A stretch of DNA of 33,836 nucleotides from the UHGV virus genome UHGV-0391018. One strand, given 5' to 3'. The stretch comes from a virus. Below, in pieces: positions 2,123 to 16,584 of this stretch. The stretch's first letter is position 1, and every line of letters begins with the position of its first letter. The notes under the pieces are model-generated. The model was not told where the DNA came from and did not search any database. It was given only the letters and a program-made list of their open reading frames with translations. Made by a program: the position numbers and the translations under genes.

Positions 2123-2152
2123 ACCTTCTCTAAAAGAGGAGGTATTTTTTAT
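2123..2152 (+). terminator. Intrinsic terminator ending the + strand block.
   Basis: ACCTTCTCT-aaa-AGAGGAGGT forms a 9-bp stem and is followed by ATTTTTTAT. Confidence 0.55.
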
Positions 2153-2223
2153 GTACCCCGCAGGCCTCGAACCCGCATCTTCCGATATGAACCGGAGTAT
2201 TCTACCAATTGAACTAAGGGTAC
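2152..2223 (-). tRNA. tRNA-like gene (72 nt) with a non-canonical anticodon arm. It may be a pseudo-tRNA or a recombination-junction hybrid. The anticodon loop region reads UUCAUAU (CAU).
   Basis: The reverse complement folds as follows. Acceptor: GTACCCT/GGGGTAC. D-arm: GTTC-AATTGGTA-GAAT. T-arm: GCGGG-TTCGAGG-CCTGC. Discriminator: A. The anticodon stem has only 3-4 pairs (TCCG/CGGA with an 8-nt loop, or a bulged A). There is no encoded CCA. A possible promoter TTGTAA..TAATAAT lies upstream on the minus strand. Confidence 0.4.
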
Positions 2224-9251: not shown

Positions 9252-12242
9252 TTATAATCGCCCCCTTGATTGTCTTTCTGTCAATTTAGCTAGTTTAAGC
9301 GAGGTATCTTCGATAGCTTGCTCACTAGATAAATCAGCATATTCAATATTGAAATTGAAGTTCGGTGCATATGACTTCGATTCGCTTGAGTTGTTAATAA
9401 TTTGCCCTCCTGCGCTTACTAGACCCATTCTTCCCGATCCTAAAGCTATCTCTGGAGTGATTTTATCTAATAATCCAGATGATAAAGCTTCCATTGTTCT
9501 GAATGCTTTATCTGAATCGGCCTCAATACCAGCTGCGATTCCTTGAGGAATGTATCGACCGATTTCATCTCTCATTACTCTAGACGGAGAATGGATATTA
9601 AGAGCATCAGCGATTGTATCCTTAATGCCATTCCCTATATCTGCAATAGTATTCCATAGGCTTTGTAAGCCGCTTGTAACACCGTTTATTAGCCCGCTAA
9701 TAATATTCTGACCAATAGAATAGAGATCAATATTTCCCAAATTGCTAAAATAGCTTTGAACTTTGCTTACTGCATCAGAAACCCCTCGAGTTAGATTATT
9801 CCAAGCGTTTTGCGCTCCGCTTACCAATCCATTGATGATACTTAAAACAGATGACTTTAAGGATTGCCACATGTTAGAAGCCGTTGACTTGATCCCGTTC
9901 CATAAATTCGACATGAAATTTTTAAACGAGTTCCACGTATTTTGAAGCCCGCTGACTAATCCAGAAACGATACTAGAAACGTTGGCTTTTAGTGCATTCC
10001 AGATCGAGCTTGCTGCCGATTTGATCGCATTCCAGATGTTCGTAACAACTGACTTCAAATTGTTAAACTGAGCTGTGACATACCCAACGATTGTAGAAAC
10101 CACACCCGAAAAGTAGGTTTTTATACCATTCCAGATCATGGACGCCGCCGCTTTGATGTTATCCCAAATTTGAGAAAGGTGTGATCCCATGCTTGAAAAG
10201 TCACCTGTAATTAAATCGGTAAGAATCAAAACAGGTGCGAGAATGACGTTTTTGATCAATTCCCACGCACCTTGAGCAACCATTTGGATACCTTGCCAGA
10301 TCATACTTAAGCCAGAAGAGACGCTGTTCCAGACATTCATAAAGGCATCAATGAACGGCTGAATGATTCCCATAATCGTCGTTTTGAATAGTTCCCACAT
10401 GACAGAAGCTGTTGTCGTGATATTGGTCCATAGTGTAGTAAAGAATTCTACTATGCTTGTCCACGCATTTTTTATGCTTTCAACAGCCGAACCGGCGGCA
10501 AGTTTTATTCCTTCCCATATTCCCGCAAACCATTCACCAACGCCCGTCCAAGCGGCAACGATCGCATTCTTTGCAGTCACGAATGCTTGTTTGATGGCTT
10601 CCCAGATCGCAATGACGGCATTTCTAAAGCCTTCGTTTGTCTTCCAAAGATACAAGACTCCGGCAACTACTGCAGCAATAGCTGTTCCAATCAATACGAG
10701 TGGGCCACCTGCAGCCGCGGCAAGTGCCGAAAAGCCTGCTTTCAAAAGAGTCAAAGCTCCAGCTGCCGACTTAATCATACTAATCGCTGTTACTAAACCT
10801 TTTACCGCTGTAACAACAGTTGTGATCGTAGCGATTACGGAAGAGATGGTTTTGAATGCCAAAAAGCCAGCTACTGCTCCTGCAAGAACAGCACCCAGTG
10901 TATTAAAGACTTCCTTATTTTTATTGACCCAATCTGTTGCTTTCTGCAATGCCGGGACAACCTCATTCATAATGGCTTCTGTGATTTTTCCGCTCACATC
11001 CCAGATAACATCTGCCAATTTTGATAACATCGGCATGATCGTGTTCACGAATCCATCAAGAAGTGGCTTCATGATGTCAAGAGCTAACGGCACGACGTTG
11101 GCCAATAATTCTGAAAGTGCAATAGCCCAACTCGATATGATACCACTAATTTTCACTAGGATCGGCTGTGCTTGTGCGAGCAGGTTTTTAAAACTATCGA
11201 TGAATCCACCGATGCGATCTTTAACGGAATATACAAGGTTACTTATTGATCCTTTGATCCACATCGTTGCCCACTTCATATTTGCAATGATTCCATCGAA
11301 CATCTTCACATTGCTAAAACCGCTTTTCAGTTTCTCGATAGCCGGTAGAATCATATCCATTGATTTTACAATTGAGTTACCAGCATTATTGATCAGTACT
11401 TTCAGTCCATCGATGTGTTGAGCAATAGTTTTACCAGAAACTTTTTGAACCAATTCATCAAATTTTGTAATTATATTTGCCACGTTTTTTGAAATTGAAT
11501 TTTTCAGATTTCCGAATGAAGTAGCGATACCAAGACTATTCTCTTTGGCTAGCTTCGCTAGCATTCCAGTCCCTGTACCTAGCTCAATCAATTTATCTTG
11601 AAACTGATCAAACGTTACATTTCCTTCTTTCAAGGCAGCATAAAGATCGCGCTGGGCAGACTTTCCGGTAAAACCCATCGCCTCTGCAGTCTTCTGTAAT
11701 GCAAGCGGCATCGTTTCTTGAAGTGTTTTCCATGACTCCAAATCCACAGTTCCTGAAGAAAGCATTTGGTTATATTGTTGCATACCACGATTGGCATCTT
11801 CAGTAGATGCGCCACTTGCTAGAAACGCATTATTCAAAGCCAAAACTGTATCAGTTGATTTATCGAGATCACCAGTGATTGACGTTAATTGTTGTGTACT
11901 GGCCACGACATCATCTAACTTAGTCGGCAGACCATCAATTCCATCAGATAGCTTATTAATCGACTTTTTTGAGTCGTCAGCACTGAATCCTAACGCCTTC
12001 ATAACCTTCGGAAACTTTTGCATCGTGTCGAAACGTGACACCGCGTCTCCAACGGAGTTTTTGAGTACATTAAAAGCTGCACTGGCAAGCTTAACAGCTC
12101 CGACAGCAACGGCCATATCTCTAATGCTCTTATTGGCTTTTGTAGATTTCCCCTCTAATTGATCCAAGTTTTTATTCAATCCAGTTACATCTTTACCGTC
12201 TACATTGACAGATATTGATACCGTTCCATCACTCATCGTCAT
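9252..12242 (-). CDS. Tape measure protein (996 aa).
   Basis: It is very long and Ala/Gly/Ser-rich, with repeated W/F-xx-I/L helical motifs and a central hydrophobic glycine zipper. It follows the G/GT chaperones. Confidence 0.85.
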
Positions 12243-12807
12243 CCTCCTCCCTTAACATATTTGGAAGAGCGTACTTACGCTGTAATTCACGCATTCTCCG
12301 CTTTTCTTTTGCATCCATTCCTTTTTGAGGTTCCCAATTTCGAATCTGGATGATGCGTTGCATAATAGAATCGTCTGGTAAACTCTCAAGAAGTGCCTGG
12401 AACTCTTGCCAAGAAAGTTTTCCTTGCTCTGCGAATAGATTTATCCCTATTTGCCTGAACGACGCATAAATGTACTTCGCGTCATAAACGATATCTAAGC
12501 TCTTTTTAGTCGGCTTTGTTGGTAATTCGTTTCCAAGTTCATCAATTTCAGGTTGATTATTTCCTTCGAATAAAATGAACTTGGATCGAATTAACTCCCA
12601 CATGTCCAATTTTTCGGATAAACTTAAATCCGTTTCTCCTACTAATAATTCAATAACCAAGTCAATCTTTTGCTTACTAAACAGCTCTTTGTCTGCTAGA
12701 ACATCAAACACGTCTAGCACATTGTCAAAAGCTAAATCAATTGGATAGGTTTTTTCACAAAAAGAAAAAGAGGTAACAAGCGGATCATTTAACCGCATAA
12801 CTGTCAC
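12229..12807 (-). CDS. Tail assembly chaperone, downstream (-1 frame, 'T') part.
   Basis: It lies in the -1 frame relative to the upstream 129-aa gene and overlaps it by GTGA. This is the conserved G/GT position before the TMP. Confidence 0.5.
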
Positions 12808-13193
12808 CCCTTCTTAATTGCTTTTTTCTTCAAATATTCTTTTTGAACATTAGTCGATTTGCTTTCCTGCTCTTTCTTGAACTCGTCGATATTCTGTGCA
12901 ATCCCACTAGCCAAATCAAAGAATGCGTTAATCCAAGCGATAAGGTCTGGTACTTCTTTGTACAGTTTCTTAAACGCTCCATCACCAAGCATTACGTCAT
13001 AGCCTAAGCCAAGCGCTTCTTTCTTCGACTCAATATCACCATCATCTTCCAATTCATTTAGTTTCTTTTCAACCTCTGCATATTTAACTTCATATTCTTC
13101 AATATGCTCCGCAGAACAATCAAAAAAGAAATCTAATCCTGCTAATGATACAGGGAACCCTGTTCTTTCAACATTAATATTTAATGCTTTCAT
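12804..13193 (-). CDS. Tail assembly chaperone G.
   Basis: It is a small acidic protein between the MTP and the TMP. Confidence 0.55.
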   Translation of the reverse strand: MKALNINVERTGFPVSLAGLDFFFDCSAEHIEEYEVKYAEVEKKLNELEDDGDIESKKEALGLGYDVMLGDGAFKKLYKEVPDLIAWINAFFDLASGIAQNIDEFKKEQESKSTNVQKEYLKKKAIKKG

Positions 13194-13203
13194 ATTCGTC
13201 CTC

Positions 13204-13431
13204 CTATGCTGATGCTGGAGTTATTTTCACAATGGCACTTTCTTTTCCATAGCCAATTTCATTTTTAGCTTGTGCCTTGAATTCATACTCCGATCCGTTT
13301 GTTAATCCACTAATATCACCCGTTTTTGTTGTAACTTCTTTTTCAGAGAATGTAGCCGACCCGGTTCTATACAAAATCTTATAGCCAGTAATATCCGATG
13401 CGCCGGACGGATCAGTAAGTGTGTAGCTCAC
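13204..13431 (-). CDS. FN3/Ig-like domain ORF, most likely expressed as a C-terminal extension of the major tail protein by a -1 frameshift.
   Basis: It has a GTG pseudo-start and no RBS. Its frame is open from the MTP 3' end, and it shows a beta-sandwich-like Ig/FN3 pattern. Confidence 0.6.
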   Translation of the reverse strand: MSYTLTDPSGASDITGYKILYRTGSATFSEKEVTTKTGDISGLTNGSEYEFKAQAKNEIGYGKESAIVKITPASA

Positions 13432-13475
13432 TTTTCCGTCACCGGCTGTTACCTCTATAGTTGGAGCATCGGGTA

Positions 13476-13958
13476 CTATTTTTTTGGTGTAATCTCTGGA
13501 ATTCGGTCAAAAGTAATCGTGCAGCTAAAGTCTTCATATTCTGTAGCATCGCCTGCGCCTGCAATGATATCCGTTAAGGTAGCGCGTCCGATATATGTGT
13601 CGCCGTTTGTCATCACAACTTTATGCCATACTTTACGACCTTCGCCAGTCTTGTATTTCTTTGAAGCAACCAAAGCTTGCGCAGCATCTTCAGGGTCGTA
13701 AAAACCTTCAGGACTATACGCTCCTGCGACCGCCGTTACTGTCGTTTCTGGTGTTCCATCGCCATCGTAAAAACCTGTATCGTCTGTTTGCTCATCGGTA
13801 TCATCGCCAATGGAGCTAATGTACTTGGCTAACCGTAACCATTCTTCACTTTCTGCTGTTGGCGCGGTTTCTTGACCTAGTGTGTATTCAGCTAAGTAAT
13901 GTTCCCGTTTCGCATTCTTGTTACGAGCAAATAATTGTATATTCATTTTTAATAGCAT
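13476..13958 (-). CDS. Major tail protein (160 aa).
   Basis: It sits between the tail completion gene and the chaperones. An A_AAA_AAA slippery heptamer lies at its last codons. Confidence 0.6.
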   Translation of the reverse strand: MLLKMNIQLFARNKNAKREHYLAEYTLGQETAPTAESEEWLRLAKYISSIGDDTDEQTDDTGFYDGDGTPETTVTAVAGAYSPEGFYDPEDAAQALVASKKYKTGEGRKVWHKVVMTNGDTYIGRATLTDIIAGAGDATEYEDFSCTITFDRIPEITPKK

Positions 13959-14356
13959 TATTTTTCCCCCTTGAAGGTTGTTAGTTTTACTTGAAAGTCT
14001 AATAAAAAAACGAACCAGCCTTGTTCATCAGCATCATTGATGAACGGCTTGCTCGATATTGTAAGATTATTGAATTCAAATGAATTATTTGAGCTAGTTA
14101 TTTCTTCTAGTTGTTCTAAATAGTCTGAGATCAACCACAATGCTTGCTCTATCTTGTCACCATCTTTTGACTTCATTGCGATTTCATAATTCAGTTGTTG
14201 GTCCTTGATACCATCATAAAACTCAGTTATTACTTGGCCGCCGGGTAACGGATAAATTACTAGGCTTTCATCCGCGGAAAGGTATCCTTTTCGAATTTTG
14301 ATAGGTAACCCAGCAATTGTATTAATGGAATCTTTAATACGATCAATAAAATCCAT
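13958..14356 (-). CDS. Tail completion / tail terminator-like protein.
   Basis: Assigned from synteny with SPP1-like siphoviruses. Confidence 0.4.
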   Translation of the reverse strand: MDFIDRIKDSINTIAGLPIKIRKGYLSADESLVIYPLPGGQVITEFYDGIKDQQLNYEIAMKSKDGDKIEQALWLISDYLEQLEEITSSNNSFEFNNLTISSKPFINDADEQGWFVFLLDFQVKLTTFKGEK

Positions 14357-15460: not shown

Positions 15461-15679
15461 CTAGCCTCCACTTGGTTCGGTTACTGTGACTTCACATGTT
15501 GCCGTCTTCCCGTTCACTGTCTTAGCGGTAACTGTAGCAGTCCCCGCAGCAATGGCGGTTACTTTTCCTTGCACTGGCGTGACAGTCGCAATAGCGGTAT
15601 TACTTGAACTATATTGGACTGACTTATCTGAAGCGTCACTAGGCACGACAGTCGCAGATAGTGTTTCGTTTGCCCCCAC
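15461..15679 (-). CDS. Big_2 (bacterial Ig-like) domain, most likely fused to the MCP by a -1 frameshift.
   Basis: It has a GTG pseudo-start. The frame is open back into the MCP 3' end. The sequence ...TVTAKTVNGKTATCEVTV... is a Big_2-like pattern. Confidence 0.65.
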   Translation of the reverse strand: MGANETLSATVVPSDASDKSVQYSSSNTAIATVTPVQGKVTAIAAGTATVTAKTVNGKTATCEVTVTEPSGG

Positions 15680-15723
15680 CGCAAGCGTAGCCGTTGTTTT
15701 ATTTAGGGTTACGCCGGATGGGT

Positions 15724-16584
15724 CTACGCTTTTGGGACGTATGAAACGTAAATTGCTTTCTTAGCATTATCAAATACAATTGCATCGTAGTAATCCAAAC
15801 CTTTGATGGTGTCACGGTATCCGCTTCGGTCTTGAGAAGCTGGAACAGTATCGACGGTACCAAATTTCACGATTGGCGCAATCGCAGTTAGAGGTGTAAT
15901 GATGAAGTTGATTGTATCTTCAATATTGATACCATTGATACGGTTTTTCGATACTTTGAGGATCGGCACACCGCCATCGATCTGAGCTACTGTACGATTG
16001 ATTCCATTAATTTGCATTTGGTTTGTGGAGAAAGTTTTGCTGACTCCTTTCGCATTCTTCAATAGACGATACGTTGCAGCAGAAACAAACATCACGTATC
16101 CACCTGGAACTTCATTATCCGTCATATATTCTTCTGCGGCATCATAGGCAGCTAGGATAGTATCTTCTGTTAATGTTTCAGGTACTTTATTCCCAGCGTT
16201 TTCAAACATTACTTGGACAGCGACTTTGTCCCGATGTGGTACCGTGATCAAGCGCTTGTGTTCTGTCACAACGTTATTGATTGTCAATGCCGCACTTTCC
16301 GATTGATCTAACTGGTCTACGTCATATCCGAACCAATCTTCATGAGTCAGCTTGATGGTTTCTTTTGCGATACTGATTTGGTTGCGAGCATTTTCCCCGT
16401 TTCGGATGTATTCAGTAGCTTCCATAAAACCTGACATTTTATTGATCCGAACCTCATTTGCACCTACGAAATCTGCTGCAGTGATGCTTTTTGCACCTTG
16501 AGTTAGTACATCCCAGACTTGAGAATCCGCGCGAAATTCTTTGTCGATTGTTGCTAAATCTTTACTATCTAATACTAATGCCAT
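15724..16584 (-). CDS. Major capsid protein.
   Basis: It follows the scaffold gene and is about 31 kDa. A CCCAAAA slippery site lies at its 3' end. Confidence 0.7.

Follow-up and report, generated by a model that had tools for sequence, protein, structure and literature searches.

We propose that the major capsid protein (MCP) gene of the virus genome UHGV-0391018 ends in a programmed -1 ribosomal frameshift, which would yield a minority 374-aa MCP carrying an Ig-like Big_2 domain beside the 286-aa MCP; we put the probability of this reading at about 0.9. An earlier reading of the DNA, made from its letters and a list of open reading frames (the sequence-only reading), had already suggested such a fusion. 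It is now supported by the phase of the slip site, the domain boundaries, 77 related loci and the codon periodicity of the -1 frame, and also by natural in-frame fusions and a 13-nt identity with the sites of phage A2. The case is an unannotated -1 frameshift of an already well-known type. The window, that is, the whole stretch of 33,836 nt that was analysed, contains the following features at this locus.

15724..16584, minus strand: MCP gene, 0 frame (ORF list and PHROG 422)
15730..15736, minus strand: slip site C_CCA_AAA, an X_XXY_YYZ heptamer in phase with the MCP frame, about 2-3 codons before the stop
15724..15729, minus strand: GCG UAG, the final sense codon and 0-frame stop, which forms most of the spacer and completes the 13-nt cassette CCCAAAAGCGTAG
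15675..15722, minus strand: predicted stimulatory hairpin CCCAUCCGGCGUA...UACGCUUGCGGUGGG, 48 nt, -16.4 kcal/mol, 7 nt after the heptamer
15724..15731 with 15683..15690 (spanning 15683..15731), minus strand: 8-bp stem of the sequence-only reading, AAGCGUAG / CUACGCUU, with a 33-nt loop
15461..15736, minus strand: -1 frame after the slip, PK-SVDPSG...EPSGG and stop (-1 translation; codon periodicity)
15488..15715, minus strand: Big_2 (PF02368) Ig-like domain, residues 291-366 of the 374-aa fusion (Pfam)
15677..15679, minus strand: pseudo-start GTG of the listed 72-aa ORF 15461..15679; it encodes residue 303 of the fusion and is not a genuine start

The capsid gene and the frame behind its stop codon

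The MCP (286 aa; predicted mass, 31.6 kDa) matched PHROG 422, 'major head protein', over residues 1-285 (E 1.3e-72). Identity is 61-63% with g34, the major capsid protein of LL-H and mv4 (both Lactobacillus phages), and 92% with the counterpart in the unannotated Enterococcus phage 4995_2 (L003). A scaffolding protein gene (phrog_194) lies on one side of it and a head-tail adaptor gene (phrog_541) on the other, and the gene order of the window runs terminase, portal, minor head, scaffold, MCP, extension, adaptors, tail protein with its extension, chaperone, Gp15 and tape measure. The phage is an A118-like temperate siphophage of enterococci. Searches with the MCP returned no Pfam family and no solved relative in the PDB; the lone PDB match was to a designed repeat protein, with no stretch significant alone, and was treated as spurious.

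The 3′ end of the MCP ORF reads TAC GTC CCA AAA GCG TAG. According to the sequence-only reading, the last codons GUC CCA AAA GCG UAG contain an in-phase CCCAAAA at 15730..15736, and the -1 frame is open from 15760 into the ORF 15461..15679. Re-reading of the sequence gave the same site and the same frame: a TAA at 15761..15763 is followed by an open -1 frame from 15760 to 15464 and a stop at 15461..15463, and the remaining two frames across the region are closed. Counted from the heptamer, 91 codons of the -1 frame are open, giving a long product of 374 aa with a predicted mass of 40.1 kDa. CCCAAAA is no more frequent in the window than expected by chance (5 copies versus 5.07), so that the significance of the heptamer lies in its position and not in its mere occurrence. 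Across 18 chosen minus-strand ORFs of the window, 26 in-phase X_XXY_YYZ sites (Y = A or T) were found, and just three of them, the MCP site included, lead into a -1 frame that stays open for more than 41 codons. Rfam gave no match at the slip site, the window's only match being a tRNA-like element. The sequence-only reading had also proposed mass spectrometry of virions aimed at the junction peptide; since trypsin cleaves behind the junction lysine (VPK/SV), a tryptic digest would not contain it.

When the fused 374-aa product was searched against Pfam, Big_2 was matched over profile positions 4-79 of 79 with E 6.8e-14 and 52 bits, versus a gathering cut-off of 22.8; the downstream ORF had thus been assigned correctly to this domain. 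Sequence relatives of the extension in the PDB are the Ig-like domains 7quz (6.8e-11), 7z47 (1.3e-10) and 6n1a, and these matches to solved domains indirectly back an Ig-like fold. An AlphaFold single-sequence model of the fusion had a mean pLDDT of 32.7 and was unusable.

The listed 72-aa ORF has a GTG at 15679, and the Big_2 ORF could in principle be a separate gene, started at this GTG or by termination-reinitiation after the MCP stop and encoding a free 72-aa decoration protein. Database records offer some precedent, as the equivalent ORF is annotated alone as a 'tail tip protein' in OQ240254 and as a 'major head protein' or 'Ig domain containing protein' in records of Streptococcus thermophilus phages. 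The Pfam match, however, begins 12 residues upstream of the GTG. As residue 303 of the fusion, the GTG lies inside Big_2, so that a start there would truncate the domain and remove its first strand. The bases preceding it (ACGGCTACGCTTGCG GTG), read by eye, contain no AGGAGG-like or other Shine-Dalgarno sequence, in line with the pseudo-start lacking a ribosome-binding site that the sequence-only reading had described. Among 32 distinct Big_2-type junctions from related loci, moreover, no start codon is conserved within the first 30 codons, and the GTG occurs in 7, with GTA, GTT, ACA or GAA among the codons found there in others. Finally, in the 14 codons that separate the GTG of the window from the 0-frame stop, -1-frame variability by codon position is 0.16/0.06/0.32, the same periodicity as the extension as a whole (see below), which argues that they are translated. 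We consider a separate gene very unlikely.

Conservation of the arrangement and of a downstream hairpin

We collected 103 analysable MCP loci, including the window, by protein-guided scans of bacterial genomes and viral contigs. In 77 of them, CCCAAAA precedes the stop by exactly three codons. Wherever the downstream DNA of these 77 is long enough, the -1 frame runs on for 18 codons or more past the heptamer; two loci end too soon to tell. A -1 Big_2 extension was found in none of the 24 heptamer-less loci, and the heptamer and the -1 Big_2 extension co-occur perfectly over the 103 loci. The heptamer-less loci either have no extension (LL-H, mv4 and others) or encode an in-frame MCP-Big_2 (three Tetragenococcus contigs). 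The extensions at the 77 loci are mostly Big_2; four loci have an extension of about 60 aa that resembles the A118 ORF annotated as HeH/LEM, and several have short ones of 18-33 aa. The heptamer is followed by GCGTAG or GCGTAA in most relatives and rarely by GTGTAG, GCCTAG, GCATAG, GATTAA or GGGTAA. In total, the family provides 46 distinct junction sequences from many species and assemblies.

For the 32 distinct Big_2 junctions, variability at the three codon positions of the -1 frame was 0.13/0.11/0.40; the related sequences are not independent, and the significance of this and the other conservation statistics is therefore overstated. Between the window and 4995_2, the extension differs synonymously at 47 codons and non-synonymously at 15. 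Judging from these codon patterns, the -1 frame of the extension is under purifying selection.

These data bear on a further alternative, in which an ancestral in-frame MCP-Big_2 gene was broken by a 1-nt insertion, or appears broken through a homopolymer sequencing error, and Big_2 is left untranslated. In-frame relatives do exist. The protein P0001 (378 aa) reads ...YVSESPK-SVTPTSVTLNK... in a single frame, exactly the predicted trans-frame junction, and effectively one base separates it from the frameshift arrangement. Against such a broken gene, many species and assemblies share the out-of-frame arrangement (77 loci, 46 distinct junctions), purifying selection persists on the -1 frame with no sign of the relaxation (dN/dS near 1) that would favour this alternative, and the identical arrangement is functional in phage A2. 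A chance disruption is therefore highly improbable. P0001 and the in-frame Tetragenococcus proteins turned up when the fusion was searched against a protein database; most of the named relatives among the hits are annotated simply as a 286-aa 'capsid protein'. The best listed homologues of the MCP-Big_2 fusion are at least 77% identical to it, most of them at least 85%.

The minimum-energy fold of the region downstream of the heptamer is the hairpin at 15675..15722. It makes no use of the 8-bp stem that, according to the sequence-only reading, begins right after the slip site, and the two structures compete for the same 3′ arm. The 8-bp stem itself can be drawn, but its first two bases are the heptamer's last two A's. 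A stem that contains slip-site bases would already be unwound once the ribosome sits on the heptamer. Among 30 relatives, none of the pairs of the 8-bp stem changes on both sides, and two central ones often fail to form: 9-51 is disrupted in 19 sequences and 12-48 in 24. Given this 2-nt overlap and the lack of conservation among the 30 relatives, we rejected it as the conserved element.

A closed hairpin, by contrast, begins 4-9 nt past the heptamer in all 46 distinct junctions, with an average of -20.8 kcal/mol versus -5.5 kcal/mol at 552 random control positions from the same loci. Its position is also kept in front of non-Big_2 extensions, with stems such as CCCCG...CGGGG, CCCCAUC...GAUGGGG, CGCCGG...CCGGCG and CGCCGAC...GUCGGCG. 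RNAalifold found no consensus structure in 30 aligned Big_2-type junctions; by our reading, the outer stem changes register from one sequence to the next. Because of this null result, we relied on a structure set by hand and on the alignment-free hairpin comparison with positional controls described above. The hand-specified structure, 20 pairs derived from one member and applied to an ungapped alignment of 30 Big_2-type junctions, had 78% of its cells paired, versus 35-47% when it was slid by 1-3 columns. Eight pairs vary on both sides (column 24-51, for example, is AU, CG or UG), as expected of compensatory change, although conserved Pro and Gly codons of the domain could account for part of the CCC/GGG complementarity.

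The window's own hairpin is unremarkable when taken alone. Whole-segment folding did not differ significantly from shuffled sequences (z -0.65 and -0.44, the latter for the hairpin), 5.4% of control positions reach -16.4 kcal/mol, and it is among the weakest of the family. In the nearest in-frame fusion, the equivalent hairpin keeps its apical part and loses its GC-rich base, reaching -13.2 kcal/mol versus -21.5 and -24.4 kcal/mol, a comparison confined to one lineage. From these folding and alignment results, the hairpin at 15675..15722 is conserved and is the predicted stimulator of the slip.

The same protein would also result if RNA polymerase dropped one A in the A4 run, and judged from the genome sequence alone, the outcome of such transcriptional slippage equals that of a ribosomal slip; a short homopolymer, AAAA, is indeed present at the site. 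In bacteria, slippage of the polymerase is generally productive only on A/T runs of about 7 or longer. The A4 run is far below this length, and the strict X_XXY_YYZ phase together with a hairpin at a spacing of 4-9 nt are hallmarks of ribosomal -1 frameshifting. In addition, the A2 site is called ribosomal in the titles of the published work (as cited in PMC5009743 and PMC7260188). We see hardly any chance for a transcriptional origin. Taken together, separate initiation or reinitiation, a broken gene and transcriptional slippage are an unlikely set of explanations, and programmed -1 ribosomal frameshifting is the reading that we retain.

Known frameshift systems and the proposed mechanism

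Among the closest known systems is Lactobacillus phage A2, whose orf5 and orf10 have published -1 ribosomal frameshifts (Garcia 2004; Rodriguez 2005; cited in PMC5009743 and PMC7260188). In the A2 genome, orf5 (major head protein) ends in ACC CCA AAA GCG TAA and orf10 (major tail protein) in GCC CCA AAA GCG TAG, and behind both of them the -1 frame encodes PKSV... and a Big_2 domain. The CCCAAAAGCGTAR of the window is identical to the signals that end both A2 genes, and the 13-nt signal CCCAAAAGCGTA(G/A) is common to all three gene ends. The window thus carries a signal identical to one that, according to these citations, has been verified by experiment, despite the different MCP families. The sequence-only reading had called the phenomenon known but still poorly understood; the former holds, whereas the latter does not apply to the recoding signal, since that of A2 has been dissected experimentally.

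The window and A2 gp5A/gp5B share C CCA AAA GCG TAR, the PKSV.P linker, the Big_2 domain and a hairpin a few nucleotides downstream, the predicted onset of which is 9 nt away in the A2 head gene and 7 nt away in the window. They differ in the capsid protein itself: the A2 MCP belongs to phrog_10 and is a 400-aa precursor with an annotated mature peptide and an adjacent head maturation protease, whereas that of the window belongs to phrog_422 and has a separate scaffold gene upstream. A tblastn search with the window's MCP did not match A2. We found no record of a frameshift for this MCP family (PHROG 422), and a literature text search linking CCCAAAA or 'CCA AAA' sites with frameshifting returned nothing relevant.

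A -1 frameshift is also described for Cps of Listeria phages A118 and A500 (PMC5009743). These phages share the gene order of the window, and their MCP, too, gains its extension through a -1 slip close ahead of the stop codon. In contrast to the window, their slip site, as read from the records, is G_GGA_AAC directly before TAA (cps ends GCG GGA AAC TAA), the module in the -1 frame is HeH/LEM-like and not Big_2, and the MCP is unrelated in sequence. A118 tsh ends in CCC TGA, which is of the +1 type. In Brochothrix phage NF5, gp6/gp6.1 combine a homologous Big_2 (about 56% identical) with a -1 shift beside the MCP stop; here, however, the site is A_AAA_AAG followed by TAG (GTA AAA AAG TAG), and the frameshift is already annotated as a joined CDS. 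The MCPs of Lactococcus phage ul36 and S. thermophilus phage 9874 end in ACA AAG TAA, followed in the -1 frame by ...APKSVTLNK... and Big_2, and their Big_2 ORF is unannotated or called separately.

Further examples are T7 and T3 capsid 10A/10B, and SPP1 gp17.1* and Listeria PSA with +1 shifts at CCC_UAA or CCC_UGA (PMC5009743, PMC8718954). As proposed for the window, two forms of a major virion protein arise from one gene by recoding near the stop, and the longer form shows an extra domain. The slip sites and hosts differ, SPP1 and PSA shift in the +1 direction, and T7 adds an extension that is not Ig-like. Tetragenococcus prophages (L016, L068 and L069) and the protein P0002, on the other hand, have the same MCP family (about 80% identical) with Big_2 in the same position; their 371-aa proteins are in-frame, lack the slip site and would carry the domain on every subunit, and their hairpin no longer has its basal GC stem.

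In the proposed mechanism, most ribosomes would read GUC CCA AAA GCG UAG and release the 286-aa, 31.6-kDa MCP. On a fraction of ribosomes, the P-site tRNA-Pro would move from CCA to CCC and the A-site tRNA-Lys from AAA to AAA, one base back, a step promoted by the hairpin 7 nt downstream. As a counter-point, the wobble position of the tRNA-Pro mismatches after this slip (CCA to CCC). The slipped ribosomes would continue with AGC GUA GAC CCA..., adding an 89-residue tail that consists of a short linker and Big_2, and the resulting 40.1-kDa MCP-Ig would co-assemble into the capsid with its domain displayed outside. Slippage in the host, its efficiency, the long form in virions and the role of the domain are what we infer, the last three from A2 and from what is published on phage Ig-like domains in general. 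Such domains are usually proposed to adhere weakly to carbohydrates or surfaces, or to stabilise the capsid.

The cassette as a possible joint, and a second candidate site in the tail gene

The 13-nt C_CCA_AAA_GCG_UAR cassette and its hairpin might also act as a portable recoding joint, at which unrelated capsid and tail genes meet a constant downstream block; we give this idea even odds. If it is true, any gene landing upstream would gain a substoichiometric display domain, be it Big_2, an HeH-like module or a short 26-aa peptide. We scanned viral contigs for CCCAAAAGCGTARNCC, a pattern that required GCGTAR, so that the scan is uninformative about other spacers. Among the matches listed, 84 of 121 end an ORF of at least 90 codons and have 18 or more open -1 codons behind them, and the proteins encoded upstream group into 25 clusters. 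The cassette is found at the end of genes from at least four major-head families of PHROG (422, 544, 10 and 840) and at least two major-tail families (88 and 820). It also ends proteins of about 100-150 aa with extensions of about 70-120 aa, which are probable tail assembly chaperone pairs. Big_2, HeH-like and 26-aa extensions combine variously with the upstream families. Shared ancestry of the PKSV linker may be the reason why GCGTAR is conserved.

Pairwise blastn of three independent pairs of loci placed a boundary at the cassette itself: homology of 92-98% begins at 0 to -3 relative to CCCAAAA and runs 4.6-9 kb downstream, and the MCP gene of about 0.9 kb immediately upstream is unrelated. 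L106 (phrog_544 MCP) and L111 (phrog_422 MCP) are 97% identical from 0 to +7966 and match again upstream of -935; L188 (phrog_840) and L154 are 97.7% identical from -3 to +9067, and L156 and L165 92% from -2 to +4641. L125 (phrog_10) and L165 have only the 260-nt Big_2 module in common. Such a boundary may reflect selection for functional recombinants at a gene end, instead of recombination at a short conserved sequence.

The window shows a smaller exchange of this kind. Outside a patch of about -93 to +59 that surrounds the slip site, it is identical to L025, and this patch (-99..+61, about 15675..15835, some 155 nt) is 100% identical to L029, the flanks of which are just 67-86% identical. 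The exchanged patch covers the slip site and both arms of the hairpin, and its 3′ end coincides with the hairpin foot. Ig-like domains have been viewed as moving between phage genes by recombination (a view quoted in PMC5009743). By its sequence, the mosaic patch fits this view and adds the slip cassette itself as a candidate marker of the joint. Recombination boundaries at the slip site provide a testable example of recoding signals that travel with modules in phage mosaicism.

The MCP lineage forms a natural series, comprising -1 frameshift, candidate +1 frameshift, in-frame fusion and no extension, which is usable for asking why partial occupancy is selected. The comparison also has a bearing on annotation. 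Phage records leave the downstream Ig ORF unannotated or misname it 'tail tip protein', 'intimate attachment protein' or 'major head protein', and a rule that looks for CCCAAAAGCGTAR at the end of a structural gene together with an open -1 frame would recover many long forms.

A second candidate site is found in the tail gene of the window, with the following features.

13476..13958, minus strand: major tail protein (phrog_820), ending CCA AAA AAA TAG (PHROG)
13479..13485, minus strand: A_AAA_AAA in the phase of the tail protein, one of the three sites with more than 41 open -1 codons
[quoted passage not shown]

From the reading frames and the Pfam match, the major tail protein probably carries a second -1 frameshift, which would add the FN3 domain. 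A2 gp10 is likewise a -1-extended tail protein, although it combines the CCCAAAA cassette with Big_2, whereas the tail gene of the window combines A_AAA_AAA with FN3. Like A2, the phage probably decorates both its head (with Big_2) and its tail (with FN3) with substoichiometric Ig-fold domains, a point of relevance to the adhesion of temperate enterococcal phages to cell walls or mucus. Some 32 nt downstream of the A_AAA_AAA, and so beyond the canonical spacing, there is a strong hairpin (z -2.5).

Homology boundaries at the slip site

The sequence surrounding the slip site of the major capsid protein (MCP) gene, the heptamer CCCAAAA, was compared between the window and two related loci, L025 and L029. 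The window and L025 are identical on both flanks but diverge across a patch of ~155 nt, extending from -93 to +59 relative to the heptamer:

about 15675..15835, minus strand: mosaic patch around the slip site, from the comparison with L025 and L029

Over this patch the window matches L029 at 100% identity, compared with only 67–86% in the flanks of L029. The slip site, the end of the MCP coding sequence that specifies the C-terminus, and both arms of the downstream hairpin all fall within the patch, and its end coincides with the hairpin foot.

We also compared viral contigs containing the 13-nt cassette CCCAAAAGCGTARNCC, which comprises the heptamer and the codons GCG TAR (L106–L225). In three pairs (L106 and L111, L188 and L154, and L156 and L165), 92–98% homology over 4.6–9 kb starts at 0 to -3 of CCCAAAA, whereas the ~0.9-kb MCP gene immediately 5′ of this start is unrelated between the pair members (PHROG 544 or 840 versus PHROG 422, the family of the window MCP). 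Further upstream, from about 0.9 kb, similarity resumes at 97% in L106/L111 and at 83% in L188/L154. The sole part shared by L125 and L165 is a 260-nt module encoding the Ig-like domain Big_2.

Cassette-bearing genes and their extensions

Among the L106–L225 matches listed, the cassette lies at the 3′ end of genes from at least four major-head PHROG families and at least two major-tail families, and the modules added after it are Big_2, a HeH-like domain or a 26-residue peptide, variously combined. Some of the genes ending in the cassette are probable tail-chaperone pairs, as exemplified by L121, in which a 106-residue product is followed by a 116-residue extension. The 26-residue -1 extension, PKSVAPKVGKLTPTTSGVVIEMEEGA, takes the place of Big_2 after the MCP in ten loci (L042, L043, L046, L047, L049, L050, L154, L181, L188 and L220). 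In both L188 and L154, the cassette plus ~76 nt occurs a second time about 2.04 kb further downstream, and this copy may lie at the end of the major tail protein gene. In L116, a phrog_820 tail protein bears a peptide similar to the 26-residue extension.

Other MCP relatives are arranged differently. In the Enterococcus diestrammenae type (L010, L052 and L092), the MCP gene ends in ACA CCC TAA AAC CGC CCT AAC and is followed by a HeH-like domain in the +1 frame, with an 8-bp stem, CGCCCUAA/UUAGGGCG, downstream. CCC_UAA is a candidate +1 frameshift site, in the style of SPP1/PSA, within the same MCP family as that of the window. In L002 (OQ240254.1, Latilactobacillus phage TMW 1.706 P2), as well as in L073, L074 and L078–L080, the MCP gene ends in GCG TCA AAA TAA. 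Reading on in the -1 frame adds just ~22 residues (ITAPTLSAAPTADGATITGK) before a stop, and a separate 73-residue ORF with its own ATG, labelled 'tail tip protein', follows. This layout is possibly a decayed or a different extension arrangement.

In Lactococcus and S. thermophilus phages, the homologous Big_2 ORFs located 3′ of MCP genes are annotated inconsistently across public records (H39–H94): the labels used are 'major head protein', 'major tail protein', 'intimate attachment protein' and 'Ig domain containing protein', and some of these ORFs carry no annotation. The named enterococcal relatives found by protein search are mostly the 286-residue 'capsid protein' alone.

A second candidate frameshift in the window

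The major tail protein gene of the window (phrog_820) ends in CCA AAA AAA TAG.

13204..13958, minus strand: major tail protein (phrog_820, 160 aa) with its putative -1 extension
13479..13485, minus strand: heptamer A_AAA_AAA, in phase with the major tail protein frame

From this heptamer the -1 frame has 93 open codons, and a fibronectin type III domain is encoded there (Pfam fn3, E 8.6e-10). The site is probably a second -1 frameshift of the window, which would parallel that of gp10 of Lactobacillus phage A2. The closest strong hairpin lies ~32 nt downstream (z -2.5), a spacing that is not canonical.

Other frame overlaps and a tRNA-like element

12804..13193, minus strand: DUF6673 ORF, 129 aa, 3′ end AAG AAG GGG TGA
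12229..12807, minus strand: Phage_Gp15 ORF, in the -1 frame relative to the DUF6673 ORF
14003..14009, minus strand: heptamer T_TTT_TTA, in phase, 17 codons 5′ of the stop of ORF 13958..14356
2152..2223, minus strand: tRNA-like element (Rfam tRNA, 38.6 bits)

The -1 frame holding the Phage_Gp15 ORF is open only from GAA GGG GTG onward. Either a P-site slip takes place on G_GGG_UGA, or Phage_Gp15 is translated independently from the ATG at 12798, behind GAAGGGG. At T_TTT_TTA, the -1 frame spans 177 codons and extends into the major tail protein gene; its length is probably a mere effect of overlapping this next gene. The tRNA-like element, to which ARAGORN could assign no anticodon, may be a remnant at a prophage attachment site.
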